Notes under the pieces: model-generated
Seen by the model: only the letters and a program-made list of their open reading frames with translations
Database searches by the model: none
What the model was told of the DNA's origin: nothing
Made by a program: the position numbers and the translations under genes
DNA from: Nemertoderma westbladi
Lineage: Eukaryota; Animalia; Xenacoelomorpha
NCBI GenBank assembly: GCA_032718475.1
Contig: JAUCBJ010006358.1
Location: 1 to 53,479, forward strand
DNA length: 53,479 nt
Direction: 5' to 3'
In this document: positions 3 through 47,627 of the stretch, one piece after another
Position numbering within the stretch: position 1 is the stretch's first letter
Layout: each line of letters starts with the position of its first letter

Positions 3-3000
3 AATCTCCGATCGTGGGAGCATGGCTACAGGTTTCTTCAGTAGGAAGTGCGCGGGTGTTAGCGCTTCCAGGGAATCGGGACTCGATGAGACTGGCATAA
101 GCGGTCTCTCGTTGAGATAGGCAGCGATTTCCTCCATTAACGTCCGCAAAAGTTCGTCGGTGAGATACGCGCGGCATGGCACTATAAAGTGAAATGCGGT
201 TTTGACACTTCGAATTAATCTCTCCCAACTTCCTCCCCACCAAGGGGCGTCGGCGGCGTTGAAGGTCCAGCTAGACGCTGTTATCCTTAGCTGGTCGTCC
301 ACCTGTCTTTGGTTCCAGTCCTTCACGTAAGCCTGTATCTCGTTGTTGGCACCTATGAAGTTCGTTCCTTTATCCGATCTCATGGTATTACTCGTCCCGA
401 AGCGAGCGATCTGTCGTCGTAAACTTAAGACGAAGCTGTTGGTAGATAGATCATTCACCATATCGAGATGGATGGCTCTACAAGTCATGCACACGAAGAT
501 GACACACCATCTCTTGACTATAGTCCTCGCACGATATACTTCAATAGGGCCAAATAAATCTACACCAGTATTAGTAAAAGGTGGTTCATAGAAGCTTACT
601 CGTTCCCTAGGTAATTCTGCCTCTCGCTGTGTTAAAGGCCTACTGAATGCTTTCCTACAGGGTATGCAGTTCCTAAGAACTTGGTTCAGAGCTCTACGGG
701 GTTTATCAAAATAATAGCGAGTTCGAATTTCGCTAAGAATTCGTTCTCTACCAGCATGGTAAAGTTTACTGTGAACGTCTACAATCATCTTGATTTGTAC
801 TTCAAGATTTCTAATAAGTATGGGGAATTTGGTGTCAAAGGATAAGGGCGCGTTGGTGAGTCTTCCTCCAACACGTATTAACCCATCTATCATTGTGCTC
901 GAGAATCGATCCCTTAAGCGCATCTGCGGATTTCTCAACAACAGGAAGTACTTTTCGGAATCCTCATAGCATTGCAGGAGTCTCAGTATCTGCTTATTTG
1001 TTTCTTCATGCTCCTGGTGACTAATTTTCTCTTTTAGAAAACGATCAGATATCTTATATTTGGGTAAATTCTTAATAACATGAACTTGTGCAGATGTCAA
1101 TGGAGCGTGATCACTAGTGGTCTTCGTCCTGGAGTAGTGATGATGAAAACATCGTCTTAAATATGTGACGGCTTTACAGAGCCGATTCCAGGAACTGTAA
1201 TGATGCATTGCTCTCTGCAGCATGGGTGAGATTCCTTGCGAGACGTCTGGTATTCCAGATTTCCAATCTTTATCTCTAATTTCCACAACAGACTTATTTG
1301 TGTTGAGGGATTGTGGATCCGAAGCATCATTCCCGGAAGTATGTAATACAGATAGATCGATAGTCGGTTTAAATAACTTCGATTTACTCGCCCGGGTTTT
1401 AGGTTTGACGGTCTCCGCTCCCTTGGCTTGTCTAATCTCTGCCGTAGTAAGGTGAGGAGGCCATTCATCCTCTTCCTTGCTCAGGAAGTCGGGTCCACCC
1501 AACCAATCTGGAGTATCTATCAGTTCCTGTGGAGTTGCTCCCCTGGAGGCGATGTCGGCTGGATTAATCGTACCAGGGCAATGTCTCCATTGATCTATCT
1601 TTGTGCGACTAAGAATAATAGCTACTCGGTTAGTAACAAAAACGCTAAACTGACAGACTTCATTGGTGAGATACTCCAACACGAGTAAAGCGTCGGTCCA
1701 ATAAACCGTTTTCTCCAGTGGGTAGTCGATTTGTTCCGTTACGTTCCGGCCGATGGCTGTAGCGTATAAAGCCGCCTTTAACTCCGCTCGAGGAACCTTT
1801 AACTTGTTGTTAATCAATGCCTTAGAGGTAACCAAGGCGACTTTGATTCCATCCGGAGTTTCGACTCGCAGATATGCTACTATACCTATTCCCATGTCGC
1901 TGGCGTCTCCAAACACATGGAGTTGATAGGAATACGTAGGAAGAACATGGCCAAAATATGCACGGGAAATTATAAAGTTCTCGATGGCAGGTAGAGAATC
2001 TTCCCATTTCATCCATTTCTTTAACAATTCCCCTTTAAGCGGATCGTCCCATGAGTGGTTTTCAAGCCACATTTGTTGTACTAAACTCCGAGCAATCAAT
2101 ATAACTGGGCTAATAAATCCCAATGGGTCGAAATAAGTGCTCAGGATACTTAAACAAATCCGTTTGGTCCGAACTGGATTATCTCGCTGTTTTAACTGAA
2201 AAAACAGGATGTCTCTTTCAGTGTCCCACTTCAAGCCTAGCGTCTTGGTTTCAGGAAGATCGTCCTTTATTAAGTCTAGGTCTTTCGCTCCGCGATCTTC
2301 TACCGGTATGGCTTCCAGAAACTCACGGGAGTTGCTAGTGAATTTCGTCAGTCGAAATCCACCTCTTTTCAAACACTCTACCGTTCCTTTCGCGACAGCT
2401 ATGGCTTCTTCTACTGATGGAAGGGACCTTAAATTGTCGTCCATGTATATATTGCGTTTTATGTTGTCTATCACTTCTTTGGAGAAGGAGTCTCGGTTGT
2501 CATTCGCAGTGGTTCGCACCACGGAGCAGGCGTTGGAAGGGCTTGATATGATCCCAAAAGCCTGGATGGTCATCCAGTACTCTACCGGTTTCTGGTTGAG
2601 GTCTCCTTCAGGCCACCACAGAAATCTCAGGCTATCTCTATCTCTATCCAGCGCCTTGACTTGTAAGAACATTCCTTCTATATCAGAGGCGAACGCGATG
2701 GAATATTGTCTTAATCTTAATAGTATTCCCAACAAAGATTGGAGTAAGTTGGGTCCTGGTAACAACTCGGAATTGAGGGATTGGCCCATATATAGAGCAG
2801 AGCCATCAAATACGACTCGTACTTCATGGGGTTTACCGGGTTTGGGAACGTAATGATGTGTTAAATAATACGTTCTCTCAGTCACTGGTGTTCCTTCCGG
2901 TACTCGCTCCGCGTATCCCTTTGTTATAAATTTCTTCAGCTGAGTTTGGTACATTTCTTTCGCTGAAGCATTAGCTGTAAGGCGTCGATATAATTGAGCG

Positions 3001-6000
3001 ATTCTTTTCTCTGCCAAGGGTCTGTTATTTATAAATCTAGGTTCTCGTTTTCGAAATGGTAGGCCGATTTCATACCTACCTTGGTCCTTTAAAAAACGTG
3101 TAGTTGTTTCCTGGATTTGCTTGGCTCTTTCTTCTTCTATCGATAGAGCCTTATCATATGAATTGGGCTCTACCAGTTCCTGAGTAAAGAATCGTACAGC
3201 TAGTTCGTCCCGAGTTCTAGCGTTGTAGCGCTCTATCTCATCGTTTAGTTCGTCATTGTAAGCGATGGGTTCCGATGGGTGAATCAGTTGACATAGGTTC
3301 ACCTGACTTTTCCAAGTTTGGTTTTCTGTAAGTAGGTCGATTGTGTTCTCTTCATCGAAGAGTTGGTAGATGTCGTCATTATCTGAGGAGTATGGTGTTC
3401 CCTCAGTTAGTTCGTCCACCTCACTGCTCTCCACTTCCCAATCGTGTACTTGGTATGTTTGTTCTTGTGGCATTCTCTCTTCGAGAGTCCTGCGGGAAGG
3501 GCCAGTAAAGTACCAACCTACTCTAGTTCTTACCGCATAGGTTTGCAGTGGCTGCGGTTGAGCAGGCCGTTTCTCTAATGTTTCGAGCGCCTCATGCGCG
3601 TTCTGGCCGATGAGTATTTGCACTCCAGGATAATCTGTCTGGAATCGAGGTATCTTAAGATGTTGGATGCTCTCATCCTCGTCCCAATTATAAAGGTCTG
3701 CTTGAGTAGTAGCGAAGTTCTTTATAGCCACCATTTTTACCGACCTTATACCTTGTGCTCCTAACTTATCCTGGGGGGTGGACAACACACCTACATAGTA
3801 ATCTGCCGTTAAGGTAGATTTCCAAACCTGCATAATTCCTGACATATTCAATTTAGTCCGGAATTTGGGTTGTCCAGCAAAGATATCTTCGGCTAATTCT
3901 TGATCGATGAATGTTCCTGTGCTGCCGGAGTCAAGGAGGGCGTTCACTATGTAACTTTTGTTAAGACCGTGAACTCTTACCTGCACTACAGGAAATTCTC
4001 TGATTCCTACGTTGGAAGTTGGAGCTTTCCAAGATGGTTGTTTGGCAAAAGTAGTTGGGGGAAACTCATTGTTGGTGTCCTTTTCATAAGTAAGTGCTCG
4101 ATACACTGCGGTATTGATTAGATAACAGGATTCGTTGGCGTCGGAGAATTCGTCAGTATAGAATCCTTCCATCTCAGACTCCTGATCAGTGTCATTTACA
4201 TCACTGAATTGGACATGTAGTTCGGGCTCACTTACCTGACTCTGTTTGTCTCGTTCGAACTCACTGTGTAACAAGATGTGATGTTTCGCGCCACACTTTG
4301 CACACTTTATGTCGGAGTAACAGGTTCGCCGTTGGTGTCCTGGTCTGAGGCAATTATAGCATAACCGCTTGTCCCACACAACTGCTCGTCTGTCTACAAG
4401 GGATTTCTTTAGAAATTCAGCACACGCACTCAAACGGTGGGTCCCGTCGCACAGCGCACAGTTAGGTTTTATGTTACTCACTTTACCTTGGGTAACTTGA
4501 TGCACTCTCGTCCTTTGTTCGGGCTTTCTTACGTGCATTCTGTTAGGGGACTGAGGAGGGGTCTTGGCAACCTGTTCTCTCCTATCGTTGGTTCGAGACT
4601 TGTATTTACTTACGTCTTTTGGGGTTTTGCTAACGTAGTAAGATCGGTCAGTGTCTTTTCCGCTGTCCTCTTCTTGAGAAACTTGGCTTTCGCCGTCGTC
4701 AGTGTAACACACCGGTGTTATTCTTCTCCTAGAAGCGGGTTTCTCACTTACCTTATTTTCCGATGTTTTCTCTCTGGACTGCTTGATGAGTTGTAGTTTT
4801 ACCTCACCATCCAAGAAGGACATGAGATCAGCCATGGTAGGACTTCGTCGTTGTTGTTCATTCATGTACAACACTTTCTTGTCCCAGCGTGTACATACTC
4901 CACCCTTTGGTAAAGTAGAGACTACGGCTCCAATAACCATGGAACTCTGATATTCATGAGACTTACCTAACCAATCCAATTGTCTACAGATCTCTTGAAT
5001 CTCATCGGAAAACTCTATAATCCCGCTACTAAGGAAGTGTCGGGGGGCTACTAATTTTGCATACAAATACTTAGCTATGTTATCCTTGTTACCATACCTG
5101 ATGTTTAATGTATCCCATACTTGTCTTAATCCTTCTGGATGTCCAATAAACTTTAACGCCATTAACTTGGGAGGTCCTTCCAAGCACTTGATGAGGAACC
5201 GAAGTTTCTCTCCGTTAGATAGCACAGAGTTCTGTATGCTGTCTTTGTAATATTCGTTGAAAGGTAACCACTTCATCTCATCCCCATTGAATTTGACGAT
5301 CTCTCCCACTTTGACCGCTTGGCGGGCTTCTGTTCTAGCCATCTGACGCGTAAAGCTTTCTTGGGCCATCGTGTTATTTAATATCGAATTATCGGTATAT
5401 AAATTTCTCGGATCATTATCAGGTCTATAGGGAATATCATTAATAACAGGTCTATAATCACCCTTAATAGGGTTTGCTATAGGAGTTTCTACTTCACTAG
5501 CAGTATAGATGCGTGTAGGCTCTACACCTTGCGCATGTAATACTTCAGACCTAACAGGTTGACACAATGTTACAGGGGGTATTGGTATTCCCTTTTGAAT
5601 ATTGACTAATTTGTCGCGTTCTAGCGCGATACTTTGCTGCACTTCTTGCAATTCGGCCCTACTTTCCCTTACTGTTCCCTTAAGTTGATGGACAGTCTCC
5701 TGCATCTGTCCGAGCAGGAGATTCATCCCCCGCCGTCCCTCCTCTACCCACTCGACCGCCGAAGCGGGAGTCGCCAACATAGTAGCGGGCTGACGCGGGA
5801 CGACGGGAGACAAATCTTTGATTTCTCTCTCAGCTTCCAGGACAGGGATATTCTCATGGACTGTTCTACCGGGTACAGGCAGTGTAGTACTGTGTAAAGG
5901 GAATTTAGAGTGAAGCTCTGGAAGTACAGGGGTCTCTAACACAGAAGTGACTTTGGGAACGACAGGCCTAATTATTTCAGGCTCATCAACTATTGTAGGG

Positions 6001-7604
6001 AGTCTTTTGACCTGAACAGTTTGGTCTATGGGTTCCGTACTACCTAAGTCTGTGCTAGCTAGCTGTCTTTTAACAGCTGGGGGCAAATCAGGCAATTTGT
6101 GACGGTGAGATGTTTTTCTACGCCTGCTTAGACGAGATCTATTTCCTCCGCCTTCAGGATCGGTGGTTTCGCTTTCCTCCGATGATGTGTATCCCTGGCG
6201 TTTGGGAGTAGATCGTCTCATCATCTGCATTTGACTAGCAGTTAACTGTTTATTTATGTTGTCTTGCGTCTCTTGCAGATTTTCCAACTCCAGTTGGGTA
6301 GTCTGCTCAGACGCTCTCCGTTCTGCTTCTGCCACTGCCCTTTCCGCCTTTGCTGCTATTCTTTCTGCTTCTACTTCTACCGCCGCTGCTTTTCTTTCTG
6401 CTTCTGCTTCTGCCGTAGCCGCCGCCTTTTGTTCCTCTATCCGTCTTTTCTTTACCTTTTCTTCTTGGACTCTAGCGAGGCGGAGTTTTTCATCAAATTC
6501 TGCTTGGTTAGCAGCTAACATTTCAGCATCGATTGAATCTAACACACGCTGGGTTCCTTCACTATTGGGGGAAAGTCCAGACAGCCGTCTCCTCAATTCT
6601 TCGTCTCCTAGGAATCGCTGATAGTCGGACAGATAAATGTCTATGGCGTCTCTCGTTCGTGGTTTCTCTGAGGTCTCTTCGCCTTCCACCTGAGAAAGGG
6701 TGGCATCGGTTGGTTCTTCATAAGTTAGTCTCTCAGACAGCTGGGATTTCCACTGGTCTGTTTCTTGTACTTGGAGACCTACCCGCTGGAACCAAGTTTT
6801 GACAGCAACCTGCAGTGACGTGTCCTGTCTTCTTTTGGAAGTTTCCTCAAAAGCTGATAGGATTAGTCGAATGCGTAGGGTTCTTTCGCGTACTTGATAT
6901 AGCAGTTCTTCCTGCTCTTGAGGTCCTTGGGGTTGTCGAAACAGTTGTTCTTCTAATTTCTCTAAGGAGCCGAAGAATCCCTGCACATATCCTGCTGCCG
7001 ACCTCTTCCAAACAGCTGGATCCATCGTATCTTTAGCCACTCCCATCCTGTGTATATCTTCCCAAGTAGCCTCGGACAGATCTAACGGGAGTCCGGGTCC
7101 GGGAAAGTTCCATTGTGACTCGACAATAGACATCAATTCTTCCCTGGCGTATCCCGCATAATTATCTTGGGTCGCTCGCTTATTTCTCGCCCAATCTGCT
7201 TGATGTTCCTCCACCGCAATCAATATAGTTGTTAGCACTGCGGCAGGAAGGGTGAGAAGGGGGTCCGAGTAGGCTTTAGCCGTCATCTGCAATCCGCGTT
7301 CGGGGGTCAGTTCGACAGTATCCGAACTACTGGAGCTATCTGATCGCTGGGAACAAGTTTCTTGACTAGGCTGTTGCTGCTGTGGGACAGCTGCTTCCTG
7401 GTTCCGTTTGACTTGGGCCCGAGTGCCGATGATAGACCTACGGTGTTGGATTAGCTTAGGGTCTGATACTACTACTGGAGGGATGACCTTTCTTTCAGTA
7501 GGAGGTGAGCTGAACTCCTTTCTTAATCGCTCCACACTCCTATCTGTGTCACAGATGGTTGTATCGATTAGACTGTCTGACAGGTTTTGCTGAGTGTCAG
7601 ACAT
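3..7604 (-). CDS. Bel/Pao Gag-Pol polyprotein (>2500 aa, open at the window edge)
   Basis: ATG at 7604 (MSDTQQNLSDS). Zinc knuckles CALCDGTH/CYNCLRPGH/CAKCGAKHH ~4460-4270; protease ALLDSGSTGTF ~3940; RT YMDD ~2440; RNaseH LHVFGDAS ~1900; integrase GVDLFGP, SDKGTNFIGA, PWWGGSWERLIRSVK and LTPAHFL. Start codon and LTPAHFL are in the same frame. Absent from the ORF track, consistent with no stop inside the window; I did not check every codon. Confidence 0.9.
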   Translation of the reverse strand, partial: MSDTQQNLSDSLIDTTICDTDRSVERLRKEFSSPPTERKVIPPVVVSDPKLIQHRRSIIGTRAQVKRNQEAAVPQQQQPSQETCSQRSDSSSSSDTVELTPERGLQMTAKAYSDPLLTLPAAVLTTILIAVEEHQADWARNKRATQDNYAGYAREELMSIVESQWNFPGPGLPLDLSEATWEDIHRMGVAKDTMDPAVWKRSAAGYVQGFFGSLEKLEEQLFRQPQGPQEQEELLYQVRERTLRIRLILSAFEETSKRRQDTSLQVAVKTWFQRVGLQVQETDQWKSQLSERLTYEEPTDATLSQVEGEETSEKPRTRDAIDIYLSDYQRFLGDEELRRRLSGLSPNSEGTQRVLDSIDAEMLAANQAEFDEKLRLARVQEEKVKKRRIEEQKAAATAEAEAERKAAAVEVEAERIAAKAERAVAEAERRASEQTTQLELENLQETQDNINKQLTASQMQMMRRSTPKRQGYTSSEESETTDPEGGGNRSRLSRRRKTSHRHKLPDLPPAVKRQLASTDLGSTEPIDQTVQVKRLPTIVDEPEIIRPVVPKVTSVLETPVLPELHSKFPLHSTTLPVPGRTVHENIPVLEAEREIKDLSPVVPRQPATMLATPASAVEWVEEGRRGMNLLLGQMQETVHQLKGTVRESRAELQEVQQSIALERDKLVNIQKGIPIPPVTLCQPVRSEVLHAQGVEPTRIYTASEVETPIANPIKGDYRPVINDIPYRPDNDPRNLYTDNSILNNTMAQESFTRQMARTEARQAVKVGEIVKFNGDEMKWLPFNEYYKDSIQNSVLSNGEKLRFLIKCLEGPPKLMALKFIGHPEGLRQVWDTLNIRYGNKDNIAKYLYAKLVAPRHFLSSGIIEFSDEIQEICRQLDWLGKSHEYQSSMVIGAVVSTLPKGGVCTRWDKKVLYMNEQQRRSPTMADLMSFLDGEVKLQLIKQSREKTSENKVSEKPASRRRITPVCYTDDGESQVSQEEDSGKDTDRSYYVSKTPKDVSKYKSRTNDRREQVAKTPPQSPNRMHVRKPEQRTRVHQVTQGKVSNIKPNCALCDGTHRLSACAEFLKKSLVDRRAVVWDKRLCYNCLRPGHQRRTCYSDIKCAKCGAKHHILLHSEFERDKQSQVSEPELHVQFSDVNDTDQESEMEGFYTDEFSDANESCYLINTAVYRALTYEKDTNNEFPPTTFAKQPSWKAPTSNVGIREFPVVQVRVHGLNKSYIVNALLDSGSTGTFIDQELAEDIFAGQPKFRTKLNMSGIMQVWKSTLTADYYVGVLSTPQDKLGAQGIRSVKMVAIKNFATTQADLYNWDEDESIQHLKIPRFQTDYPGVQILIGQNAHEALETLEKRPAQPQPLQTYAVRTRVGWYFTGPSRRTLEERMPQEQTYQVHDWEVESSEVDELTEGTPYSSDNDDIYQLFDEENTIDLLTENQTWKSQVNLCQLIHPSEPIAYNDELNDEIERYNARTRDELAVRFFTQELVEPNSYDKALSIEEERAKQIQETTTRFLKDQGRYEIGLPFRKREPRFINNRPLAEKRIAQLYRRLTANASAKEMYQTQLKKFITKGYAERVPEGTPVTERTYYLTHHYVPKPGKPHEVRVVFDGSALYMGQSLNSELLPGPNLLQSLLGILLRLRQYSIAFASDIEGMFLQVKALDRDRDSLRFLWWPEGDLNQKPVEYWMTIQAFGIISSPSNACSVVRTTANDNRDSFSKEVIDNIKRNIYMDDNLRSLPSVEEAIAVAKGTVECLKRGGFRLTKFTSNSREFLEAIPVEDRGAKDLDLIKDDLPETKTLGLKWDTERDILFFQLKQRDNPVRTKRICLSILSTYFDPLGFISPVILIARSLVQQMWLENHSWDDPLKGELLKKWMKWEDSLPAIENFIISRAYFGHVLPTYSYQLHVFGDASDMGIGIVAYLRVETPDGIKVALVTSKALINNKLKVPRAELKAALYATAIGRNVTEQIDYPLEKTVYWTDALLVLEYLTNEVCQFSVFVTNRVAIILSRTKIDQWRHCPGTINPADIASRGATPQELIDTPDWLGGPDFLSKEEDEWPPHLTTAEIRQAKGAETVKPKTRASKSKLFKPTIDLSVLHTSGNDASDPQSLNTNKSVVEIRDKDWKSGIPDVSQGISPMLQRAMHHYSSWNRLCKAVTYLRRCFHHHYSRTKTTSDHAPLTSAQVHVIKNLPKYKISDRFLKEKISHQEHEETNKQILRLLQCYEDSEKYFLLLRNPQMRLRDRFSSTMIDGLIRVGGRLTNAPLSFDTKFPILIRNLEVQIKMIVDVHSKLYHAGRERILSEIRTRYYFDKPRRALNQVLRNCIPCRKAFSRPLTQREAELPRERVSFYEPPFTNTGVDLFGPIEVYRARTIVKRWCVIFVCMTCRAIHLDMVNDLSTNSFVLSLRRQIARFGTSNTMRSDKGTNFIGANNEIQAYVKDWNQRQVDDQLRITASSWTFNAADAPWWGGSWERLIRSVKTAFHFIVPCRAYLTDELLRTLMEEIAAYLNERPLMPVSSSPDSLEALTPAHFLLKKPVAMLPRSEI

Positions 7605-8929
7605 GTTTAGCTATACAGTTGAATGCTTACTGCTATAGTTACAGTTAAAGCAAGTCTAGTAATTCAGTATGACCGTTGGCCTAGTACCAGTAATTTATTG
7701 CAGTATATTAGAATACCGGTATGCACTTATAATATATATAAGTATTGTAAACTAGTTTTGTCACAGAGTACCGGTATATAAATTTAGCACAAATATATAT
7801 AAATATATAATAGGCCTATCGTGAATACCAGTATACAGCTTACACTTATAGTATATATAAGTATAATTATGAACTAGAATTAATTACAGAATACCGGTAT
7901 GATTTCAGCTCAAATTTATAGAAATAAATATAATAAGCCTATGGTAAATACCGGTGTGTCAATTATTTTAGAATAATTGATTTTCTGAATATTTTAGGGT
8001 TACTTGGTTACTTTAACTTACTTTGTTACCGTTATTTAAGCAGTAGTCCAACTGATTTTGAGACCTAGTTGTTGTATGGCAGGCCTACTATTTATAAATC
8101 GTTTGAGTTGATTTATAATAGATATATACCCGTTTAAAATATTCGAAATAAATGCTATTATTTCTGGGGGAAGTCACTACACAGAAGCTGTGCGCTCTCA
8201 GTGAAGTGCTACCTATTTGACACTAAAACAGATAATTCTAATTTACCTAAGTTACTTAATACTACAAATTACTTACGATACGGGTGAGATTAATTCTCTA
8301 ATTAAACACAACAAAAATATTACGTACGAATTTTTAGGGTAATTTTACAGGAAGTCTACAAACCAGTCTAACAAAGGGTTAGAATTCGGTTTATTTACAA
8401 CGGACAGGGTACTACGGCATTTGAAATAATAAGTAGTAGTAAATATATTGTACTGTCCAGATAGGAAAAATACCACCGCCTGACGACCTATAACCGTATC
8501 GCTATAGGTACTACGTTATGTATCACGGAGTGTTCCTACCTAGAAGTTAATTACCGCGGACTACCAGATCCAGCGTGCCTATTAACCACTTTACAACACA
8601 AATATACTGCCTACACACTAATTACTTCGGAAAGCACTGTACACTAAACCCTAAATTAGGTACAAGTACTGGTACAACAAATAATCAGTAGTTAAATATA
8701 CTTGAACAGTTAAAAGAACCACGGCATCTGCTGGAGTGACCAGAGCACAAAGTCACCAGTCTTGTCCTACGCCAAGCAGCCCGTGTAGTACCGGGGTTAA
8801 TTTAACTATAACGGTATGTATAACAAACACAATTACTGTAGGAATAAACTTGGGGACATGAATGTTGCGAATAATCGCATAAACTCTGAATAATAAATAA
8901 TACGCTACCCGTACAGAATACTCAAACAA

Positions 8930-9475
8930 AATACAGACCAAACGCTGGCAGACTACCACCAAGCCTAAATAAACTACTGTATGTGCAGATTCCAAAACGG
9001 TTAGTTAGTATGCGTTCTAACACGGTAGTACGACTTATTCTTTAAGAGGGGATTGACCTTACAGCTATTGCTGCCCCAACTTACTAACTGGCACTTTATC
9101 AGACAAACTCTACACAAGCAGCAATCTCTTCAGACCTAATAATAGCTAGACAACAATCCAGCCTACAAAGTATCTGAGTAATAACTATTACGGTATCTGA
9201 ACAGACCACACAAACAAACACAGTCCAAAGCGCTGGCAGAATACTGTCAAGCCTAAATAAACTACAGTATGTGCAGATTCCAAAATTGTTAGTTAGTATG
9301 CGTTCTAACACGGTAGTACGACTTATTCTTTAAGAGGGGATTGACCTTACAGCGATGGCTGCCCCAACTTACTAACTGGCACTCTATCGGACAAACTCTA
9401 CACACGCCGTAATCTCTCCAAACCCAACAACAATCCGACAACAGTCTGGCCTACAATTATCTGAACAATCTGAGC
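8930..9475. repeat. ~288-bp tandem duplication in the element 1 leader
   Basis: The gcgttctaacacggtagtacgac block recurs at ~9012 and ~9300. Confidence 0.85.
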
Positions 9476-9635
9476 AGACTTACACGTCTTCAGCTCAATA
9501 TTAACTTACTAGGAAATAAAACTGACAGAAATAGACCTAAGTAAAATCTCAATAAAAACCAGGCGTCCCCGATTTAATATCGAGACCTACCGGTATACAA
9601 TAATCAAATCGAATAATACTAATGTACTTATACTG

Positions 9636-9765
9636 GAAGTACCGGTTAGGACAGTTGGGCCTACAGGCCTACAGAAGTACCGGTTCTGACAGTTGGACCT
9701 ACGGACCTACAGCAGTACCGGTTCTGGCAGTTGGGCCTACTGACCTACAGAAGTACCGGTTCAGG
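9636..9765. repeat. ~36-bp tandem repeat (3-4 copies) in the element 1 leader
   Basis: agtaccggtt...cagttgggcctac.gacctacag repeated. Confidence 0.8.
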
Positions 9766-9818
9766 TTTACCGGTTGACCGGTACTTTCAACTTTATTGCT
9801 TACTGCAATAAAGTCAAA

Positions 9819-9827
9819 GACTGTTAT
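9819..9827 (-). promoter_or_regulatory. Non-tRNA primer-binding site of element 1 (ATAACAGTC on -)
   Basis: Abuts the LTR end, lacks TGG, and is the exact complement of the LTR-internal site 10582-10590. Confidence 0.7.
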
Positions 9828-11092
9828 TGTACGCGCTTTTGAAGACCTTTAGCAGTTTAACCTGCCAAAATTTATATGTCTTTTGGTTTATCAATATACT
9901 TTAGAAGATGACAAATATTTAATACCAATAAACACAACATTAGCAGAAGCCAGCCTAGTGCGCGTCCATTCACCCGCTGGATATTCCCGGGAGACTGGAT
10001 TCTGAGGGCTTAAATTATTATTGCAGTGAAGCTTACTGTATTGTATTATTCGATTGATCGTTAATAATTAATTTCTGACTAATATTATTTACTTTCGGGA
10101 AATATTAACAGTTCCTTTAGGACGTGGCGCTCTATCTAAATAAACAGAGATATGACTTATACTAATCACAACGGTAAGTCGGTAAGGCTTAAGATTCACG
10201 TATGAGGCGCATTCTTTAGGAAATGCTTAGTTATCAATCACAATCATGCACACTACCGGTAACACACAATACTGCACACTAATTTGCCAACCGTCAATGA
10301 ATTTTATCATATATAAAGAGAACAGCAACGGACCAATGTAGTGCTTATCAAATAGCATTAAATTCACTACAAACCACAACAATATAAGTCGCAATCGCTA
10401 TATATAACCCGTCTCTCTAACCTGTAGTGTATCAAGAAAATTGGGAAATTTGGGTTCTTTATATATGTTCTCCAAATAATATTCAACCAAACACAACAGT
10501 AAATAGCAGTATAATAATGTATGTTGAACAGTAATAACAACAAAGTATTGAATTGTGAATGGATTGATTTGATTTGCATTGATAACAGTCATACGCTCTA
10601 TAATTTAAGCCTACTAATGTTTCTTCTAAAAGTATGAAACGAATTGACTCTAGAGCCGTTGTTCCTGGCCTAGACAGCAATAACAACAAAGTATCCAGAA
10701 AAAACAGTAAGACTGAACACTCTCCTTATGATCGACCGAAAAGCTACACGTCGACAGGAAAAATCGCTCTGATTGGCTCAAGCCAAACAAAGAACCATGC
10801 ATCCAATGGCTGTTTCCATGTCAGCAACCAGCTGTTAGATGTCGTAATATGAATCATCACGGCTAAGCTATGAAAGGTATTTGTCGCATTGCAGGTTTTT
10901 TGCCTTACCATGTCCGCTAAAACACGTATATAGCAGAATGACTTTTATGTCCGTTAAAACACCTGTAACGGTACCTTGCGGGCGAGGGGAATATATATAC
11001 AGTTAGAGAACCTTTTTAGAGTATTCCAGCGCCTGGGGGGAAACTGGATTGCGAAGCAAAAGGGCCAGTTATATCCCACAGAAGCTTTTACA
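9828..11092 (-). repeat. 5' LTR of element 1 (~1265 bp)
   Basis: TGT...ACA termini (tgtacgcgc...gcttttaca) align with the element 2 LTR termini (tgttcgcgc...gcttttaca). The partner LTR is outside the window. Confidence 0.85.
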
Positions 11093-11782
11093 GAAACTAC
11101 CCAGTAATTTTACTTTAATTGTAACGGACGACCTCGTACACCGTAACAGTCAAGTTTTTTTAATAGTATGTCCATGACCTACTATAGATACGACCCGCCA
11201 AGCTGCTGCAAAGCCCCTAAATTTGGAGGGCCAGTTATTTCTCTTAGATAAAACCCCTGAAACAATAGGTCTAGCGCGTCGAAAGTACTTGTCCATAACT
11301 AAAATTATATTCTCTTTCAAATGAGACAAATAAAAAGTTAATAGCTCCAGTAGTTTACGAGATATGAGGAGTTCCTGGCACCCATACCATTTCGGAACCT
11401 TTCGGAATTGATAAAATTACACAAAATACATTACCCTTCAAAGACTTGGGTATAACCATGAAACCATACAATGATTTTTTGATTTGTTGAATTCATTATT
11501 AGTAATCGAAAGTAAGATTAGAAGCAAAATTTTCATTTTTTTATCAATATATACCAAAGGAGCACCAAAAGTGCAAGTAGCACTTTTTTCAAACGTGGTA
11601 AATTGGCCATACAGTTTGGCTACTGAGGTTTTAGAATGTGCTGATTTCATTGGGAAGGTTTATTCCTCTACATCAAACATATCAAAGAGTTGTGTAATAT
11701 AACAGCATAGGCATGTTGTTATATTATTTATTAGTCAGTTATTTGTGCCCCTGGAGCGCGAAAAAAACAAGTAGTGGAAATA

Positions 11783-12440
11783 TGTAAGCGGATTCAATTC
11801 CCTTCATTCTCCACCCTAAAAATGGGACCAGTGGCATTTTACCAATATAGTTGGCGATACGAGATTACCACTAATAATCTCGCCTCATAACCAACTCGGG
11901 GGGGGGGGGGGGCAACACAGGCCCTAAAGCCATAGAGAGAGGTGAGAGGTCAAACCACCTCGGAGAGAGAACCCAGCTAGTTAAGGGTAGCAGCAGGGGG
12001 TAACACTTACAGGGAGTGCCAAAGTGACAATTAGTATATAAGCCAATAGCGGGCAGGGGAGCACGTGGGGAAAGATAGGAAAGCATCCATTGGGTAGCAA
12101 AAGGCCAAAGTAGAGTAGAGGTGAAACCAATATCTATGTGTATCAATCATAGAGTTATCCTGATTACTGGTTTACCGGTCAGTTCATTAATCACAGAGTT
12201 GCAGAACGGCAACAGTTTTAACCATCACTTTATACACTGCTGTTATAATTCTGTATTGCAATTCCTACCATTATTTGTTATACATTCTGTGCTATTATCA
12301 TTGGAACATTAACAACGAGAAACACAAACTCAGTTATTTTCCTGACGGCCTTCGGCCAAAGATACTAGTTCAGCAGCCCAGCAGCAAAGTGACGCGTATA
12401 ACCTAACCCGGTCGGGATCCTTGAACTCGATCCCGTCACA
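11783..12440 (+). repeat. 5' LTR of element 3
   Basis: tgtaagcgga...cccgtcaca; about 15 substitutions plus small indels versus the 3' LTR (counted by eye). Confidence 0.95.
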
Positions 12441-12450
12441 GTTAAAACTA
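12441..12450 (+). promoter_or_regulatory. Non-tRNA primer-binding site of element 3 (GTTAAAACTA)
   Basis: Directly follows the LTR. Complementary to AGTTTTAAC at 12214-12222 and TAGTTTTAAC at 21150-21159. Confidence 0.7.
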
Positions 12451-12525
12451 ACCGAGTCGAAACTAGCCAAGAAGTTAAAACTATCAAGCTTACAACTAAG
12501 ACTGTGACCGCAACACAACACTAAG

Positions 12526-15500
12526 ATGAGCAAACAGTTGCCCCGAGAACCGGAGGGAGAAAGAACGCCGCCACGGACCCCGGACGACACCAACCAAACG
12601 ATCTGAGAGGCTGCGACGAGACGGTACCGGCCAGCCACACCTGATTCGCCAACGAGGGACGATCCAAATGCCCAAGTGGAGGGCGGCCGACAACTACGAG
12701 GAGGGAAAGACAACGACGAGTCGACGCACGACGACGACGGCGGTCGAAGTACCGAAGTCGCCGGCCAGCCACAGGCCGAGGGCGACGGACGGCCTATCGG
12801 AATGGCGACGGTGGGGCGACTGGTACAATGCCGGATGAGGAGGGAAGGTAGAGTCAACGAGGAGGACGTCGGGACGAGTGATCGCCTACGACAGGTGTAC
12901 AACGCCATGAAGAAACTACTAAAAGAGGCTAAGGAGGGGAGAAAGGTAGACCAGCCCAAACTATACCAGAGGCTAGGTGAGTCGAATAAACATTTTCGTT
13001 ACTTAGTCCGTTTTGGACAGGGAGAACTGGCGAGTGAGAGAGCGAGGGGGGTCACCACAGAACTGTTTGAATTGTGGCGGTCCGAGGTAATGCAACCAGA
13101 TGTAGTGTACATAGGGCCTTACCTAGTGGATGCCAGGGGAATTAAGTTAGTGGGATGGGTGGACCCACACAATGGCGAATCCGAGATTAACCCCGAGGAT
13201 TCGGTGTCGTCGGTTAGTAAGAACCCCAGTAAACGGGGGAAAATTAGTAGGACAGAGAGGCGACGGGAGTCCGTCGCGACCGATAAGTCCGCTACATCCT
13301 CCGCGAAAGCAAGAAGGATGTTAGAGATAGATCTGGCGTGTCAACTAGACATTGTGGCGCTGGATCAAAAGGAACTGGAAAGGCAGTTAGATGAGGGAAC
13401 TGCGCTATTAGAGAGGGAGAGAGAATTAGCGAGAGAGTGTAAAGAGAGTGCCGAGAGGGAGGCGAGAAACTTTAGGGAGGGTGAGGCGAGGGAAACGAAC
13501 GAGCGCAAAGAGCGAGAGGCGAGAGAGGCAACGAGGATTGAGAGAGAAACGAACGAGCGCAAAGAGCGTGAGGCAAAGCGGGCGGAGAGGATTGCGAGAG
13601 AGGCAGAGTTAGCCGACCAAAGTATGAGGGAGGATAGGGAGAGAGAGAGGGCGGGCAGACGTATGCGGGATGATATGCATACCCGGCTGAGGGGGTTAAT
13701 GTAATAACAAGCGAAGCAAAAGCGCCGATTAGAACTGGCAAAAATGGGATTATCGGAGACTGAGGCTGGTTCGGGTAGTATTTACGAAGAACCAGAGGTA
13801 ATGGAAACCTTTGTTAATACCCCACTTACAGGTACCAAACGACAGACCCAGGACTGGTGTAATCGTACGGGCAGGGGGGGGGGGGTAATAATAATAATAT
13901 GTTAGAGAGAGTTAATATTAATAGTACCGTAATAGACAACCCTAATCAAACCTTTCTTGCAGGAAATAATGTTTTACCCGGTAACAATAACCTTAATTTA
14001 AATGTGCAAAATAACTAAATAATACAAATAATTCTGAGCAAAAGAATTTAAATAATTTGGGTAACATCAATACGTAAAACAACCCTGAAGAAATTAACCA
14101 AAATAATATCATTAGTAATAGTGTAACGAATCAGGGCGAAATTAATAATGGTGCAATTAATACAAACGTAGGGGGAACAGGTGGGCCGGCCAACGAGAGC
14201 GTGCAAGGCCACGCAGTTGCACAGGGGGAAGCGGGGGTGAGTCAACCCAACGAGAGCCTGCAAGTTAGGTGAACCGCGGCACCCGACGACAGAGATTAGT
14301 AGGGGGATTGCGAATATCCCCAGAACCGTCCAACCGGGCAGAGACAGAGACGTTGGTGCCGTGAGCGGGCAAGCGAGAAGACGTCGAGCTCAGTCGGAAG
14401 ACGGAAGAAGAACAGTGGAGTTTATCCGGGAGGTCGAAGCGAGATCTCACGAGGAGGAACACTGCACTGAAGCAAGACGAAGTCAAGAGAATCGAAGGAG
14501 CGTTGCTACGAGCAACCGGAGAGGAAGGACGGACAGTGAACCGTCGATAGTCGAGATGGAGTTAGAGAGCCGGTGGGGTCATACTCCGGGAGATTGCCGT
14601 CGCCCCGGAGAGACACAACCTGGTGAGATATACTACACACCGGGAGAAGGGTACAGGATGTACTGGTATGAGAATGAAGACAGAAGAGGGGATCGAAGAG
14701 AAACTTTCCGACGGAACGTAGCTGCTGATCGAGAATATGGTAGTCGCAGGGAGGACTTCTTGGAATATTCAAGAAGATTAAACTTCGGTCCGGAAGGACA
14801 CAGGCAGACTGCAGGACATACTGTAGGCCTTACTGCACATACTATAGGACATGCTGGGAGAGATAGTGTAGGCGATAGGGTAGCGTGGACAACAGGATTA
14901 GACCCGGAAATCGCGGCATACATACCGGTAGGTAGGCAAGAAGTGGATAGGCCTATACCGGTATCTGCACACCAGTATGACTATAACATGCAGGGATATA
15001 ATATATACCCAGGGGAGGGGGGAGCTATTGCCGATAGATGCATGGGCCCTAACATGATAACATCAACCCCAGTACCAAATATAACACCGGTGGGGGGGGG
15101 GGGGGGGGGGGCAGGGTGACATTCCCCCATTGCAATATCAGCAATACACTCAACCAAGAACAAAAACCCCAAACCCCTCAGACCCAAATAAGTCATGTGA
15201 CACGGAGATATGGAGGGGACCGTTACCCCCGATGATATATCCTAAACAAGGAAAGTGGACAGGCCCGATGGGCGAACCGTACCCAACAGCAGGGGAGTCT
15301 GCACCACAACCATCGGGCGCGCTAGAAGTACAAGCGATGGGAATGGCAACACTCATCGACGCGCTAGAGACCAGGATCGAGCCACCACCAGTGGAGCCAT
15401 TCAAATTCAATGGTAGTTAGCCGGAGGAATACCTGCAATTCCGGTGTATATACAGTAACGAAATATTAACGAAGAACTTGACGCAGGCGGAGTGCCTTAA

Positions 15501-17412
15501 ATACTTACAAGTTTACACAGGGGGGCCAGCATACGACATTGTTAGGCAGTACCAAGGTATCGAAGGGGGATTCACGACTGCATGGCGGGCCCTAGACAGG
15601 GAATTCGGGCATCCTGCAAAGATCATTCGACAAACCTTAAGGGGAATAACATCAGGCGGACTATAGGATAACCCTGTCAGCATCAAGACTTTCGCAAATA
15701 AAGTCAAAAAGGCGCTGATTGTGCTAAAGACCCTAGATGCACCTTACGAACTCAACGCATCAAATAACATCACTACAATAGAGCAGGCACAACCGATCTG
15801 GCTGAGGAACAAGTGGAGAAAGATCGCCTTCTCCACCCGGGAGAAGAAAGGTGCGGAGCCAGGGCTAGATGAGATGTCGAACTTCCTTAACTATGAGGCG
15901 GAGTTGATTACAGACCCAGTCTACAGCGACGATAGTTTGGGGAGGGTACTGAAAGCTGAATACAACAGGCCTAAACTCGAACATAATCCGGCAGATGCAT
16001 TCCCAAGTGTGAGACAGTCGCTACCGCATGCGGCCCCGCAGGGGACTTGTAGTCCACAAACAGCTGGGAGTAGAGCCACACCGTGGCAGGGGCAGAAGCA
16101 AAACAACAACACAAACAAATACAAACCCAGTACCCCCAGTAGGCCAAGTCCAAATAATAAAAACACTAAACCGCTAGGTATGAATATATGCGCGATACGC
16201 GAAGCGCTGTATAAAGAAGGCTACAATCCAAAATACAAATGCCAATTACACACAAACGCATTCCACTAGGCCATGAATTGCAGGCATTGGCAGGCGTTGC
16301 CTAAACAAGATCAGGTCGCTTACGTGGATATAAATGGACTATGTCGTTGATGCGTGGTAGAAGGACACAGATTCAGAGAGTGTAGAGAAACACCGATAGT
16401 ATACGACGAGACTGATGAGACTGGAGGCCAAACTATGGCTATAAGCACGACGGGAGCAAGGAGGAAGAGGACAGTACTACTGGGGGTAGTACCAGTGAGA
16501 AAAACAGGAGAGGATGGGCTATCGGTCACAACATTAATGTTGGTCGATAGTGGAGCAGCATTCACATTAATGGAGAGTTGGGTGGCCGAAAGGATAGGGT
16601 TATGAACGAGGCCTAGCAAGATGGCGGTAACCACTATCTCCAATAAGGACTAGGTCATGAGAATGAGCATGGGGCGTTGCGAGATATCAGCGATAACACC
16701 AAGGTGCGGCTATGGGGCTACCATCGAACCCATCCAAATAATGGAATCGATTAATATTAACGCCAGGCGACCCACGAAGATCAAGGTCGAGCAATACCGG
16801 TACCTGGATGACATTGATTTTTCCATACCAGAACTGGACGTCCCGAAAGTATCTCTCATAGTCGGCATGGACTGCCCAACAGCCCACGAGAGACTACAGA
16901 CCATTTTCTGCGATGACAGGGAGCGAGACCCAATGGCCATTCTCACGCTATTTGGATGGACGCTCACTGGCCCAATTAAGACGAGGACACCATTTGGTGT
17001 GTCCGGGACATCAGGGTGCGTGCTGTCTGGTATTGTTGAGGACATAGGGAAGAAACCAGAGATGGGCGATGGGGAGGTCCCATGTGAGAAGCGGCCCGGG
17101 GAAGGATACCAGGAGTCGGGGATGGGTATGGATCTGGAACCACGCATAGTGGAGCATGGTGAAAGGATAGAGGATAGTTCCAGAGAAATACCACCGATAG
17201 ATGAGTTAGGAGGGGAAGCAACAGCAAGAGAGTGGGCGGAGGAGAATGGGTTCAATGCAGAGGACCTAGAGGCGATGGGATGGAACAAGGATATTCCTGG
17301 TGAGTATCGTTATGAGGATGGGGTAGAGTGGACGGCGAGATGTCCGGAGGGGTGTCCGGGAGGAGACGCCGGTCCGGTTGAGAGGCATACCGAAAAGGGG
17401 GAGGTCAAATAA
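12526..17412 (+). pseudogene. Degenerate Bel/Pao gag-protease ORF
   Basis: Fragments: coiled-coil (12676-13704), Gag core PFKFNG..EYLQF..ECLKYLQVYTGG..AWRALDREFG, broken knuckle GLCR*CVVEGHRFREC, protease LVDSGAAFT, and SLIVGMD..AILTLFGWTLTGP. Interrupted by roughly ten stops or frameshifts. Confidence 0.85.
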
Positions 17413-17814
17413 GAAGACAGGGTGGAATGGGATAGGTTTTTTATTCTCCATTCTGCTTTACCTATTCTCTCGATTTCTTTTCATTCTACCGCCAGGTGAC
17501 GACAAGATGAAGGGTGGCATTTTGCTGCCAGGGGACCATGAGGAAGTCAAGAAGGCAACTGAAAGACCCGATTTTAGGGTGGAGGAGAAGGGAAGATCAA
17601 TTCCGAGAGAGTTTGAATTGACAAGGAGAATGGGGCGAAGGATAAGAGGACCTACAGGGGGGCAGTGGGAGAGTGCCTGTTGTAAGAATCGCCCTTAAAG
17701 TTTAGTCGTCCAATATATTGGACTGAGGGGGGTGGGAATGAGGGCTCCCACATATAAAAACAAAAAAATAAACAAGCAAAATAATAAAATAATTAGTAAT
17801 AGTAGTAGTAGGTA

Positions 17815-18295
17815 GTACATAGTACTAAGTAAGGTACATAGCGAGTACCATAGAACCTGTGGGCACTGAGGGCGCCATGTAGTGAGCGGAATTAAAGGGT
17901 ATGTAGGCATGCCATAGTAGTAGGGTACATAGTACCGTAGAAGTTGTGGGCACTGAGGGCGCCACGTAGTGAGTGAAAGTAAAGGGTACATAGTACCATA
18001 GAAGTTGTGGGCACTGAGGGCGCCACGTAAGAAAGTAAAGGGTATGTATGTATACCATAGAAGTAGTAGTAGGGTACATAGTACCGTAGAAGTTGTGGGC
18101 ACTGAGGGCGCCACGTAAGAAAGTAAAGGGTATGCATGTATACCATAGAAGTAGTAGTAGGGTACATAGTACCGTAGAAGTTGTGGGCACTGAGGGCGCC
18201 ACGTAAGGAAGTGAAGGGTATGTACACATACCATAGTAGTAGTAGTAGTACACAGTACCGTAGAACCTGTGGGCACTGAGGACGCCACGTGAGGA
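17815..18295 (+). repeat. Internal tandem repeat, 6 units of ~88 bp (one of 61 bp)
   Basis: gtgggcactgag core at 17859, 17946, 18007, 18095, 18183 and 18269. Confidence 0.9.
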
Positions 18296-20715: not shown

Positions 20716-20723
20716 GGGGGGAG
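20716..20723 (+). other. Polypurine tract of element 3
   Basis: GGGGGGAG immediately before the TGT of the 3' LTR. Confidence 0.85.
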
Positions 20724-21377
20724 TGTAAGCGGATTCAATTCCCTTCATTCTCCACCCTGAAAATGGGACCAGTGGCATTTTACCAATATAGTTGGCGATA
20801 CGAGATTACCAATAATAATCTTGCCTCATAACCAACTCGGGGGGGGGGGGGGCACAGGCCCTAAAGCCACAGAGAGAGGTGAGAGGTCAAACCACCTTGG
20901 AGGGAGAACCCAGCTAGTTAAGGCTAGCAGCAGGGGGTAACACTTACAGGGAGTGCCGAAGTGACAATTAGTATATAAGCCAATAGCGGGCAGGGGAGCC
21001 CGTGGGGAAAGATAGGAAAGCATCCATTGGGTAGCAAAAGGCCAAAGTAGAGTAGAGGTGAAACCAATATCTATGTGTATCAATCATATAGTTATCCTGA
21101 TTACTGGTTTACCGGTCAGTTCATTAATCACAGAGTTGCAGACCGGCAATAGTTTTAACCATCACTTTATACACTGCTGTTATAATTCTGTATTGCAATT
21201 CCTACCATTATTTGTTATACATTATGTGCTATTATCATTGGAACATTAACAACGAGAAACACAAACTCAGTTATTTTCCCGACGGCCTTCGGCCAAAGAT
21301 ACTAGTTCAGCAGCCCAGCAGCAAAGTGACGCGTATAACCTAACCCGGTCGGGATCCTTGAACTCGATCCCGTCACA
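20724..21377 (+). repeat. 3' LTR of element 3
   Basis: Direct repeat of 11783-12440, followed by TSD AAATA. Confidence 0.95.
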
Positions 21378-35507: not shown

Positions 35508-36751
35508 TGTTCGCGCTTTCAGACCTTTGGCAGTTTAACCCGCCAAATTAGAATGTCTTCTAGATAATAAATCACTTTTAGTCTATGACAAGTATTTAAT
35601 TCACTACACTAGTCGAAACCAATCTGTGCGCGATCATTCACCCGCTGGATATTCCCGGGAGATTGGGTTCGACGGTTTAATTTTATTGCTATGTAAGCCT
35701 AATGTATTATTCGACTGACAGTATTATATAATCTCTGACAATATTATTCACCTTCGGGGAATATTAACAGTTCCTTTAGGACGTGGCACTTTATCTATAT
35801 AAACAGAGTTATGACTTAAACTACTCACAACGACATGGCTTAATTATAATTCACATATATGGCGCATTCTTTAGGAATGCTTCTTTAACAGACTCACTCA
35901 TACACAATGCTGCACAATACTGCACACTAATCTGCCAATCTTCACTGATTTTAGTCACATATAAAAGGAACACAGACTGACTCATGTAGGGTCTATCAAA
36001 TAACATTAGATTCACTTCAAACCACTTTAACATAAGTCACAATCGTTTATCTGTAACCCTTCTCTCTTACCTTCGGTATATCAAGAATATTGGGTTTCGG
36101 GGTTATTTATCGTTATTCCAAATATAATTATTCATCAACCATATTATGAAGAACTGACGGTAAATAGCAGTATAAAACAACAATGAAAACACTGATTGTT
36201 ATGAGTTTGCAATGTTTCAGCAGTCAGCATGTATGATCAGTCAGCAGTATGCCGGTCCGCAGTAGTCGTTAGTTAAAGGATATATGCCCTTTATAATTAA
36301 ACCTACTAGTGTAAGACTAAAAACAGTAAAGCACAAAAATACTTCCAAGCCGTTCTTTCTTTGGCTCAGGACTGAATGTAAACACTGCACATAGGCATTG
36401 CGTCATTTCTCGGAAATTTTCTGTACAAGGAGCCACAAAAACGCTCTAATTGGCTGACTGAACTGAGAGACGCCGTAGAACAAAGGAAATCAACACGTAT
36501 GAATGTCAGCTGTTAACCGTAGTCATAGTAACTACTGTTCAAGAGTAGCTATCACCCTTTTGCGTCACGAATTGCCATAGAATCATAAAATATGCCTTTC
36601 ACAGTACACATACGGAGGAAATAGGTCTTAGATCCTCTAAAAACACCGATACAGCAATAATACGGTCTCTTACACTTATTAAATCAGCTACAGAGTATTT
36701 TAATGTAAAAGATAATAAAAATAACGGGGCAATTCAGCAAAGGCTTTTACA
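35508..36751 (-). repeat. 3' LTR of element 2
   Basis: tgttcgcgc...cttttaca; preceded on the - strand by purine-rich GGGAGCGG (36752-36759, PPT-like). Confidence 0.96.
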
Positions 36752-46372: not shown

Positions 46373-46383
46373 ATATCCTTTAA
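46373..46383 (-). promoter_or_regulatory. Non-tRNA primer-binding site of element 2 (TTAAAGGATAT on -)
   Basis: Abuts the 5' LTR. Exact 11-nt complement at 47149-47159 (and 36273-36283). Confidence 0.75.
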
Positions 46384-47627
46384 TGTTCGCGCTTTCAGAC
46401 CTTTGGCAGTTTAACCCGCCAAATTAGAATGTCTTCTAGATAATAAATCACTTTTAGTCTATGACAAGTATTTAATTCACTACACTAGTCGAAACCAATC
46501 TGTGCGCGATCATTCACCCGCTGGATATTCCCGGGAGATTGGGTTCGACGGTTTAATTTTATTGCTATGTAAGCCTAATGTATTATTCGACTGACAGTAT
46601 TATATAATCTCTGACAATATTATTCACCTTCGGGGAATATTAACAGTTCCTTTAGGACGTGGCACTTTATCTATATAAACAGAGTTATGACTCAAACTAC
46701 TCACAACAACATGGCTTAATTATAATTCACATATATGGCGCATTCTTTAGGAATGCTTCTTTAACAGACTCACTCATACACAATGCTGCACAATACTGCA
46801 CACTAATCTGCCAATCTTCACTGATTTTAGTCACATATAAAAGGAACACAGACTGACTCATGTAGGGTCTATCAAATAACATTAGATTCACTTCAAACCA
46901 CTTTAACATAAGTCACAATCGTTTATCTGTAACCCTTCTCTCTTACCTTCGGTATATCAAGAATATTGGGTTTCGGGGTTATTTATCGTTATTCCAAATA
47001 TAATTATTCATCAACCATATTATGAAGAACTGACGGTAAATAGCAGTATAAAACAACAATGAAAACACTGATTGTTATGAGTTTGCAATGTTTCAGCAGT
47101 CAGCATGTATGATCAGTCAGCAGTATGCCGGTCCGCAGTAGTCGTTAGTTAAAGGATATATGCCCTTTATAATTAAACCTACTAGTGTAAGACTAAAAAC
47201 AGTAAAGCACAAAAATACTTCCAAGCCGTTCTTTCTTTGGCTCAGGACTGAATGTAAACACTGCACATAGGCATTGCGTCATTTCTCGGAAATTTTCTGT
47301 ACAAGGAGCCACAAAAACGCTCTAATTGGCTGACTGAACTGAGAGACGCCGTAGAACAAAGGAAATCAACACGTATGAATGTCAGCTGTTAACCGTAGTC
47401 ATAGTAACTACTGTTCAAGAGTAGCTATCACCCTTTTGCGTCACGAATTGCCATAGAATCATAAAATATGCCTTTCACAGTACACATACGGAGGAAATAG
47501 GTCTTAGATCCTCTAAAAACACCGATACAGCAATAATACGGTCTCTTACACTTATTAAATCAACTACAGAGTATTTTAATGTAAAAGATAATAAAAATAA
47601 CGGGGCAATTCAGCAAAGGCTTTTACA
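46384..47627 (-). repeat. 5' LTR of element 2
   Basis: Direct repeat of 35508-36751. Confidence 0.96.

Follow-up and report, generated by a model that had tools for sequence, protein, structure and literature searches.

How does a BEL/Pao retrotransposon whose long terminal repeat (LTR) is followed by no tRNA-type primer-binding site (PBS) begin reverse transcription? The question is raised by element 1, which lies in the window, that is, the whole 53,479-nt stretch of Nemertoderma westbladi DNA analyzed here. Our preferred answer, to which we give a probability of roughly two in three, is that element 1 would self-prime reverse transcription in cis with the 5' part of its own RNA. That the primer would derive from the LTR, whether in cis or otherwise, appears highly probable from the sequence.

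Element 1 is a BEL/Pao LTR retrotransposon on the minus strand, with the following main parts.

9828..11092, minus strand: 5' LTR of 1265 nt, TG...CA, its right end homologous to the end of the element 2 LTR pair
7605..9818, minus strand: leader of 2.2 kb with tandem repeats, ATG-depleted by ATG counts
3..7604, minus strand: single open gag-pol frame (Gag, protease, RT, RNase H, integrase) that exits the window edge

The gag-pol frame starts with an ATG at 7604 and stays open to the window edge (2536 residues, stop-to-edge). Pfam matches comprise Peptidase_A17 (E 2e-35), DUF1759 and an Integrase_H2C2 zinc finger, and PF05380 is carried by all 120 RT-RNase H relatives among the matches listed. 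The domain order gag-PR-RT-RH-IN is that of BEL/Pao, as are the three Cys-His boxes of Gag and the protease motif LLDSG, an instance of the LLDxG motif described for BEL/Pao in the accessible text of PMC554778. A Tf1-like Ty3/gypsy identity is ruled out because the Pol and Gag domains are those of BEL/Pao. The YMDD of RT, the four acidic residues of RNase H and the D-D-E of integrase are intact in comparison with 39 relatives. RT-RNase H identity to relatives is ~37-45% (35% for the top-ranked row), and the named relatives among the matches listed come from sea anemone, coral, molluscs, echinoderms including sea urchins, barnacle and fish. No relatives were found in the viral contigs scanned, and the element 1 LTR has no match in the 79 metagenome loci described below.

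The PBS of element 1 is complementary to its own LTR.

9819..9827, minus strand: PBS of element 1, without TGG, adjoining the LTR end
10582..10590, minus strand: exact complement of this PBS, the predicted self-primer, with no intron interruption

The PBS reads ATAACAGTC and follows immediately on the LTR end ...CGTACA; the predicted primer lies 754 nt before that end. An earlier note had proposed this pairing in a copy with apparently intact RT and RNase H. Both parts hold, as the pairing is exact and the catalytic residues are present. The LTR right end was set independently of the PBS match: the element 2 LTR pair stops matching at the homologous CA, and no TGG occurs within 3 nt past the element 1 LTR end. 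The LTR starts with TGTAAAAGC, which matches the LTR start of element 2. GAAAC, which the note had expected as the target site duplication (TSD), adjoins the LTR start at 11093-11097; the other side of the duplication lies beyond the window, with the 3' LTR. In contigs of run X1 (possibly DNA), 10474-10643 is uncovered and what is covered holds no GT-AG joint; two contigs have other letters at PBS positions 9-10.

Two further LTR elements share the window.

46384..47627, minus strand: 5' LTR of element 2, a young copy without RT and most of RNase H (LTR pair, TSD TAAGC)
35508..36751, minus strand: 3' LTR of element 2, paired with 46384-47627
46373..46383, minus strand: PBS of element 2, TTAAAGGATAT
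47149..47159, minus strand: 11-nt complement of the element 2 PBS, at a place homologous to the element 1 complement
11783..12440, plus strand: 5' LTR of element 3 (LTR pair, TSD AAATA)
20724..21377, plus strand: 3' LTR of element 3, paired with 11783-12440
12441..12450, plus strand: PBS of element 3, GTTAAAACTA, without TGG
12214..12222, plus strand: 9-nt complement in the 5' LTR of element 3, 218 nt before the LTR end
21150-21159, plus strand: 10-nt complement in the 3' LTR of element 3

All three LTR elements in the window carry a 9-11-nt self-complement, the letters of which differ between elements. Elements 2 and 3 have TG...CA LTRs and 5-bp TSDs. The LTRs of element 2 show 3 differences in 1244 nt, and its predicted primer lies 765 nt before the LTR end. 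Element 3 (11783-21377, plus strand) is a decayed BEL/Pao-related gag-protease element with LTRs of 658 and 654 nt that are 97% alike; no RT was found in it. It also holds a 365-residue frame (18903-20000) with Cys-His clusters and without a Pfam match.

Taken alone, the 9-nt match of element 1 stands only modestly above chance: 49 of 9591 exact internal 9-mers have a complement anywhere in the LTR. The 11-nt match of element 2 is equaled by 5 of 9289 exact words and, among random internal 30-mers, by 2 of 1000; the match of element 3 is reached by 12 of 1000 such 30-mers. The reading that the element 1 match arose by chance, or that its LTR boundary is misplaced, could appeal to the 16 of 1000 random internal 30-mers that reach at least 9 nt in the element 1 LTR under a more permissive search, and to the position of the 3' LTR outside the window. 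We nevertheless consider it very improbable, given that the match occupies the same place as the 11-nt match of element 2, that the boundary is set by the element 2 LTR pair, and that element 3 and relatives show the same pattern. The self-complementary arrangement is real and beyond chance.

Elements 1 and 2 covary at the pairing. Five of the first nine PBS letters differ between them, and each change is compensated in the partner; a consensus fold of the two recovers the primer:PBS helix, and in 5 of its 7 pairs both partners have changed. Cross-pairing between the elements scores 5 and 7, against 9 and 11 for each with its own partner. Element 2 lacks RT and most of RNase H, corresponding to residues 1413-2005 of element 1, and its deletion joint is present in three contigs of run X1. 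Since element 2 is young yet RT-less, it was moved in trans. Element 1 could be the enzyme source, but the two elements are only ~80% identical, so element 1 is not necessarily the helper that was used. The primer-PBS pair of element 2 itself has been retained, which is what a primer acting in cis would predict.

No tRNA genes were found in the window. No Rfam family reached gathering score there either (two weak sub-threshold matches lie in the leader), and hence no known ribozyme or IRES able to make the primer end. The rest of the window is rich in repeats. A tandem array of ~118 copies of a 64-nt GC-rich unit (22877-30439) is preceded by inverted arrays of 15-17-nt units (21578-22866), and a ~470-nt repeat array surrounds element 2 (34892-35507 and 47628-48083). 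Long inverted repeats (50633-52580; ~400 nt, 95%) occur with ATAAC-type arrays, also present at 33386-33964, and are MITE- or foldback-like. Between repeats lies an uninterrupted 4-aminobutyrate aminotransferase (ABAT) frame (31568-33079, plus strand), which is a retrocopy or an intron-poor gene. It is ~50-56% identical to its counterparts in many phyla, which marks the host as an animal without a near relative among the named ones.

In relatives of element 1, the self-complement is frequently completed by a predicted intron. A profile of 40 proteins yielded 79 metagenome loci (the best 80 of 486 confirmed). Twelve of these loci have an apparent LTR right end; TGG is found in none of the 12, and their short complements often start directly after a pyrimidine run and AG. 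When one GT-AG intron was allowed, the complements were completed. With LTR ends anchored by their flanks in seven relatives, five gave strict GT-AG spliced matches of 10-15 nt, each reached in 0-1 of 1000 nulls: 12 nt in L013 (donor 6662, exon 2 at 6739), 12 nt in L014 (donor 908, exon 2 at 985), 15 nt in L016 (donor 6570, exon 2 at 6646), 11 nt in L023 (donor 6924, exon 2 at 7110) and 10 nt in L050. Another, L059, has a contiguous 11-nt match in its 3' copy (3 of 1000 nulls) and an acceptor at the joint in its 5' copy, while L045 fails the strict acceptor rule and gives 10 nt once this is relaxed. Off-diagonal LTR-PBS pairs score 4-9, save for the sister pair L045/L050. An unanchored scan of 78 loci found spliced matches of at least 11 nt in 10 real loci versus 0 and 1 in two nulls, and of at least 10 nt in 15 versus 2 and 1.

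Where the LTR is linked to the leader (20 loci), 17 loci carry a 10-15-nt self-complement, 16 of them spliced and one contiguous. The self-complement of the 16 spliced loci appears only once a predicted GT-AG intron within the LTR is removed; in three of them, a contiguous 11-12-nt match deep in the leader ranked first. The remaining three linked loci have no convincing match, and two of these resolve without the terminal-CA requirement (L034 spliced, 11 nt; L048 contiguous, 11 nt). Further matches are contiguous in L030 and L038 and spliced in L027, all of 11 nt. No convincing match was found in L036, L043, L020, L029, L047, L060, L061, L068 and L076, in which the LTR is mostly not delimitable, nor in seven of the eight loci tested with the 3' LTR alone.

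Two loci show unusual copy arrangements. On one contig, L059 has LTRs with (5' copy, 1-326) and without (3' copy, 6694-7103) the predicted intron, which could be a real intron loss or a copy chimera. L032 (1-18507) comprises three head-to-tail units that share LTRs at an exact 6138-nt period, either a tandem array or an assembly artefact.

We tabulated 23 families: 16 spliced, five contiguous, and elements 1 and 2. They were picked for having a match and so give no prevalence. Match lengths are 9 nt (1 family), 10 (3), 11 (14), 12 (2), 13 (2) and 15 (1), the element 1 match being the shortest. The predicted introns are 71-426 nt long, and exon 2 contributes 4-7 nt to the match. The PBS starts with GT in 18 families, AT in four and TT in one, and never with TGG (0/23); position 2 is T in 23/23 and position 1 a purine in 22/23. 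The right end of the pairing is sharp, with A then C or U in 22/23. The distance from primer to LTR end is 46-360 nt in relatives versus 754 and 765 nt in elements 1 and 2.

These regularities bear on the possibility that the pairing is structural, serving genome circularisation, packaging or a translation switch, while a host RNA such as a tRNA fragment primes. The loose PBS pattern across families (mean 5.1 of 11 positions identical) would suit such a role. However, the pairing lies at precisely the position that a primer has to occupy, 0-3 nt from the LTR end; its right end is sharp and its length is most often 11. Furthermore, elements 1 and 2 reside in one host and differ at five of nine positions, so no single host RNA fits both. 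We therefore regard a structural role as improbable, and self-priming by the LTR segment remains our preferred reading.

Spliced and contiguous designs are intermingled among relatives. In a quick RT-RNase H tree (without L073, which is too short, and without named Sinbad/Sailor, Suzu, Dan or Flow references), spliced families spread over the whole tree and contiguous ones are scattered; the contiguous L030, for instance, neighbors the spliced L031. Element 1 forms a long branch (1.98), and its predicted position among the spliced families is unsure. A spliced (GT-AG-split) primer was sought in elements 1, 2 and 3 and not found. We lean, somewhat less firmly than toward self-priming itself, to a wider scheme: throughout a broad aquatic-animal clade of BEL/Pao, the spliceosome would assemble the primer from the LTR exon-exon joint, marking the 5' copy for cleavage and sparing the 3' copy, and element 1 and its two neighbors would be intron-less derivatives with a ready-made primer, which in element 1 would act across a 750-nt structured R. 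Element 1 is likely to be an intron-less descendant of a split-primer design.

Under self-priming, transcription of element 1 would begin at or shortly before 10590, and the segment 10590-10582 would fold onto the PBS. The element's RNase H would then cut after the last A-U of the paired stretch, where a 3'-OH is needed. As no ribozyme was found, the analogy with Tf1 makes RNase H the probable cutter; work by Levin from 1996 is said to attribute Tf1 priming to RNase H cutting. The Tf1 primer is 11 nt long. RT would copy U5 and ~750 nt of R and then jump to the 3' R, and later plus-strand synthesis would write the primer back into the PBS. In LTR elements generally, plus-strand DNA copies the primer into the PBS. 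Such recopying would keep the primer/PBS match constant over ~11 nt, which the 11-nt mode fits. In most relatives, the paired stretch would be the exon-exon joint of the predicted LTR intron. The primer would arise when the 5' copy is spliced, and the 3' copy, left unspliced, would transmit the intron and escape cutting. Only the spliced copy can pair fully in intron-bearing families. Inheritance of the intron would require the 3' R copy to remain unspliced. Splicing of the 3' R copy would yield the intron-less LTRs of L059, L030 and L049, and probably those of elements 1-3.

The scheme places a long R-U5 between primer and PBS, flanked by several candidate signals.

9828..10581, minus strand: ATG-depleted segment predicted to be a long R-U5; its last 635 nt are 76% identical to element 2
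10591..10630, minus strand: block kept with element 2 just upstream of the primer, candidate core promoter from alignment and motifs
9918..9923, minus strand: ATTAAA, kept in element 2, likely a poly(A) signal, ~95 nt before the LTR end
9848..9870, minus strand: hairpin predicted by folding in U5, shortly before the LTR end and also present in element 2
9790..9814, minus strand: hairpin predicted by folding directly downstream of the PBS, also present in element 2

An R-U5 of this length, ~760 nt, had been put forward in the earlier note, and it gains indirect support from ATG depletion, the ATTAAA and folding. From primer to LTR end, element 1 has 7 ATGs where 19.0 are expected and element 2 has 12 where 23.0 are expected; upstream of the primer there is no depletion (6 seen, 7.8 expected; 7 and 7.6 in element 2). 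LTR identity between the two elements is 42-44% over the first 400 nt and 63-78% over the last 660 nt. No common ORF was found in the two long R regions, and no Rfam family in the long R-U5. In folding of both elements, long-range folds being weak evidence, the probability of primer:PBS pairing is 0.95-1.0 if the RNA starts 0-12 nt before the primer and ~0 if it starts at least 35 nt upstream. Together these data agree with transcription starting close to the primer and with R being ~700 nt long. The 2.2-kb leaders of elements 1 (7605-9818) and 2 contain 4 and 5 ATGs against 34.6 and 35.1 expected, together with 288-, 123- and 38-nt tandem repeats, and look like very long scanned 5' UTRs. The two long R regions also have in common a donor-like site (10421) and a pyrimidine-AG (10135) on the minus strand, ~285 nt apart (46946 in element 2). 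The pair is possibly a second LTR intron; its joint is not PBS-complementary, and the element 2 acceptor fails the strict rule.

That the primer is an LTR self-complement is borne out by covariation in the window and across relatives, but an RNA start exactly at the primer is not. Across the 23 families, the sequence next to the perfect match shows better pairing with the flank of its own PBS than with the PBS flanks of other families (permutation p=0.002), which points to an RNA start somewhat upstream of the primer. The upstream block holds a pyrimidine-AG at about -35 and, at about -12, the only TATA-like motif common to elements 1 and 2, from which a canonical start would fall slightly 3' of the primer. 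A start at least 35 nt upstream, where the predicted pairing collapses, would agree with a CCAAT box located 170-186 nt before the primer. The spacing of neither motif is canonical for a start at the primer. Among 12 relatives we found no fixed TATA-to-primer spacing: TATA-like motifs occur in four, 93-228 nt from the donor, and only L013 has canonical TATA spacing. The 23 families have no AT peak upstream of the primer, and 10 of them have pyrimidine-purine starts, versus a background of 0.24.

The same LTR sequence might instead prime from another molecule or end. A short LTR transcript, running from the start to the LTR poly(A) site and spliced in relatives, could act in trans, or the primer could come from the 3' LTR copy of a co-packaged genome; either route would be tRNA-independent and would need no 760-nt loop. 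Poly(A)-like signals 6-87 nt past the primer end in 10 of the 12 spliced relatives examined make a short transcript possible, and a start set by the TATA-like motif at -12 would keep the primer within U3. On the other hand, each PBS matches its own LTR and not those of its neighbors, as expected in cis, and cis folding is favored when the RNA starts near the primer. Moreover, the primer described for Tf1 is formed by the 5' end of the very mRNA that it primes, according to the accessible parts of PMC4600332 and bioRxiv 2022.12.06.519325. Priming from another molecule or end is thus unlikely, though clearly less so than a structural role, and we favor self-priming in cis.

If true, this would add a third superfamily with self-priming, beyond Ty3/gypsy and Ty1/copia, and would make self-priming a repeatedly used solution. 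A splice-completed primer would link retrotransposition to the host spliceosome. Silencing by tRNA fragments at the PBS is described for ERVs in the accessible text of PMC7472051, and self-primed elements would be expected to escape it. Self-priming would also explain why annotation that relies on tRNAs misses the PBS of these elements. Element 1 is a useful test case: its RT-RNase H frame is open and its primer is not split, and cleavage could therefore be assayed without splicing.

Element 1 is a variant with BEL/Pao proteins and not a typical family member. Cer7-type BEL elements of Caenorhabditis elegans are said to carry the gene for a primer RNA of their own, which is short, separate and derived from the internal region; tRNA-independent priming is thus proposed within BEL/Pao there as here, but the primer of Cer7 is not an LTR segment. 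According to ICTV, the replication of BEL/Pao (Belpaoviridae) elements is poorly understood, and the 18-nt PBS of these elements serves a host tRNA-Arg or tRNA-Gly (PMC8742986). Element 1 resembles that description in its single gag-pol, PR-RT-RH-IN order, ~1.2-kb LTR and polypurine tract. It lacks the tRNA-type PBS of this description and of the insect element Achilles, for which the accessible text of PMC4580426 gives a tRNA-Tyr PBS; a tRNA-Arg/tRNA-Gly-type PBS is equally absent from the 23 tabulated families (TGG in 0/23) and from element 3. In their accessible main text, the BEL/Pao surveys PMC3118150, PMC554778 and PMC6238403 mention neither PBS nor tRNA, and PMC8220671 treats the PBS only generically. 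In the literature covered, which excludes Repbase Reports and most subscription journals, we found no BEL/Pao self-priming and no splice-built primer.

As far as the accessible parts of PMC6317226, PMC3601003, PMC4600332, PMC5443660 and bioRxiv 2022.12.06.519325 go, self-priming is confined to Tf1/sushi, Tcn1 and TAR. Self-priming is predicted from sequence in the plant Ty1/copia TAR (Houba, Osr-1) and Ty3/gypsy Tcn1 lineages in the accessible text of PMC6317226. These resemble our case in that self-priming was deduced from sequence outside fission yeast, but they are plant elements of other superfamilies, and that text describes no splice-built primer. Tf1, Tf2, Tj1 and the Tf1/sushi group of Ty3/gypsy chromoviruses have a PBS complementary to their own LTR and no tRNA site, and cleavage makes the primer (PMC4600332 and bioRxiv 2022.12.06.519325, accessible parts). 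Element 1 shares with them a PBS that adjoins the LTR end, is complementary to its own LTR and has no tRNA site. It differs in its BEL/Pao proteins, in a primer 754 nt before the LTR end and in the intron-split primer of its relatives. Membership in Tf1/sushi is rejected, as element 1 has BEL/Pao domains and no Ty3/gypsy chromovirus RT or integrase; the resemblance is one of mode at most. When checked for the three-duplex pretzel of Tf1, the folds show local hairpins to either side of the PBS, and the helices that join the LTR end to the post-primer bases are only weak. A short, sharp-ended, element-specific complement at the LTR end without a tRNA site is the hallmark of self-priming known from Tf1 and Tj1.
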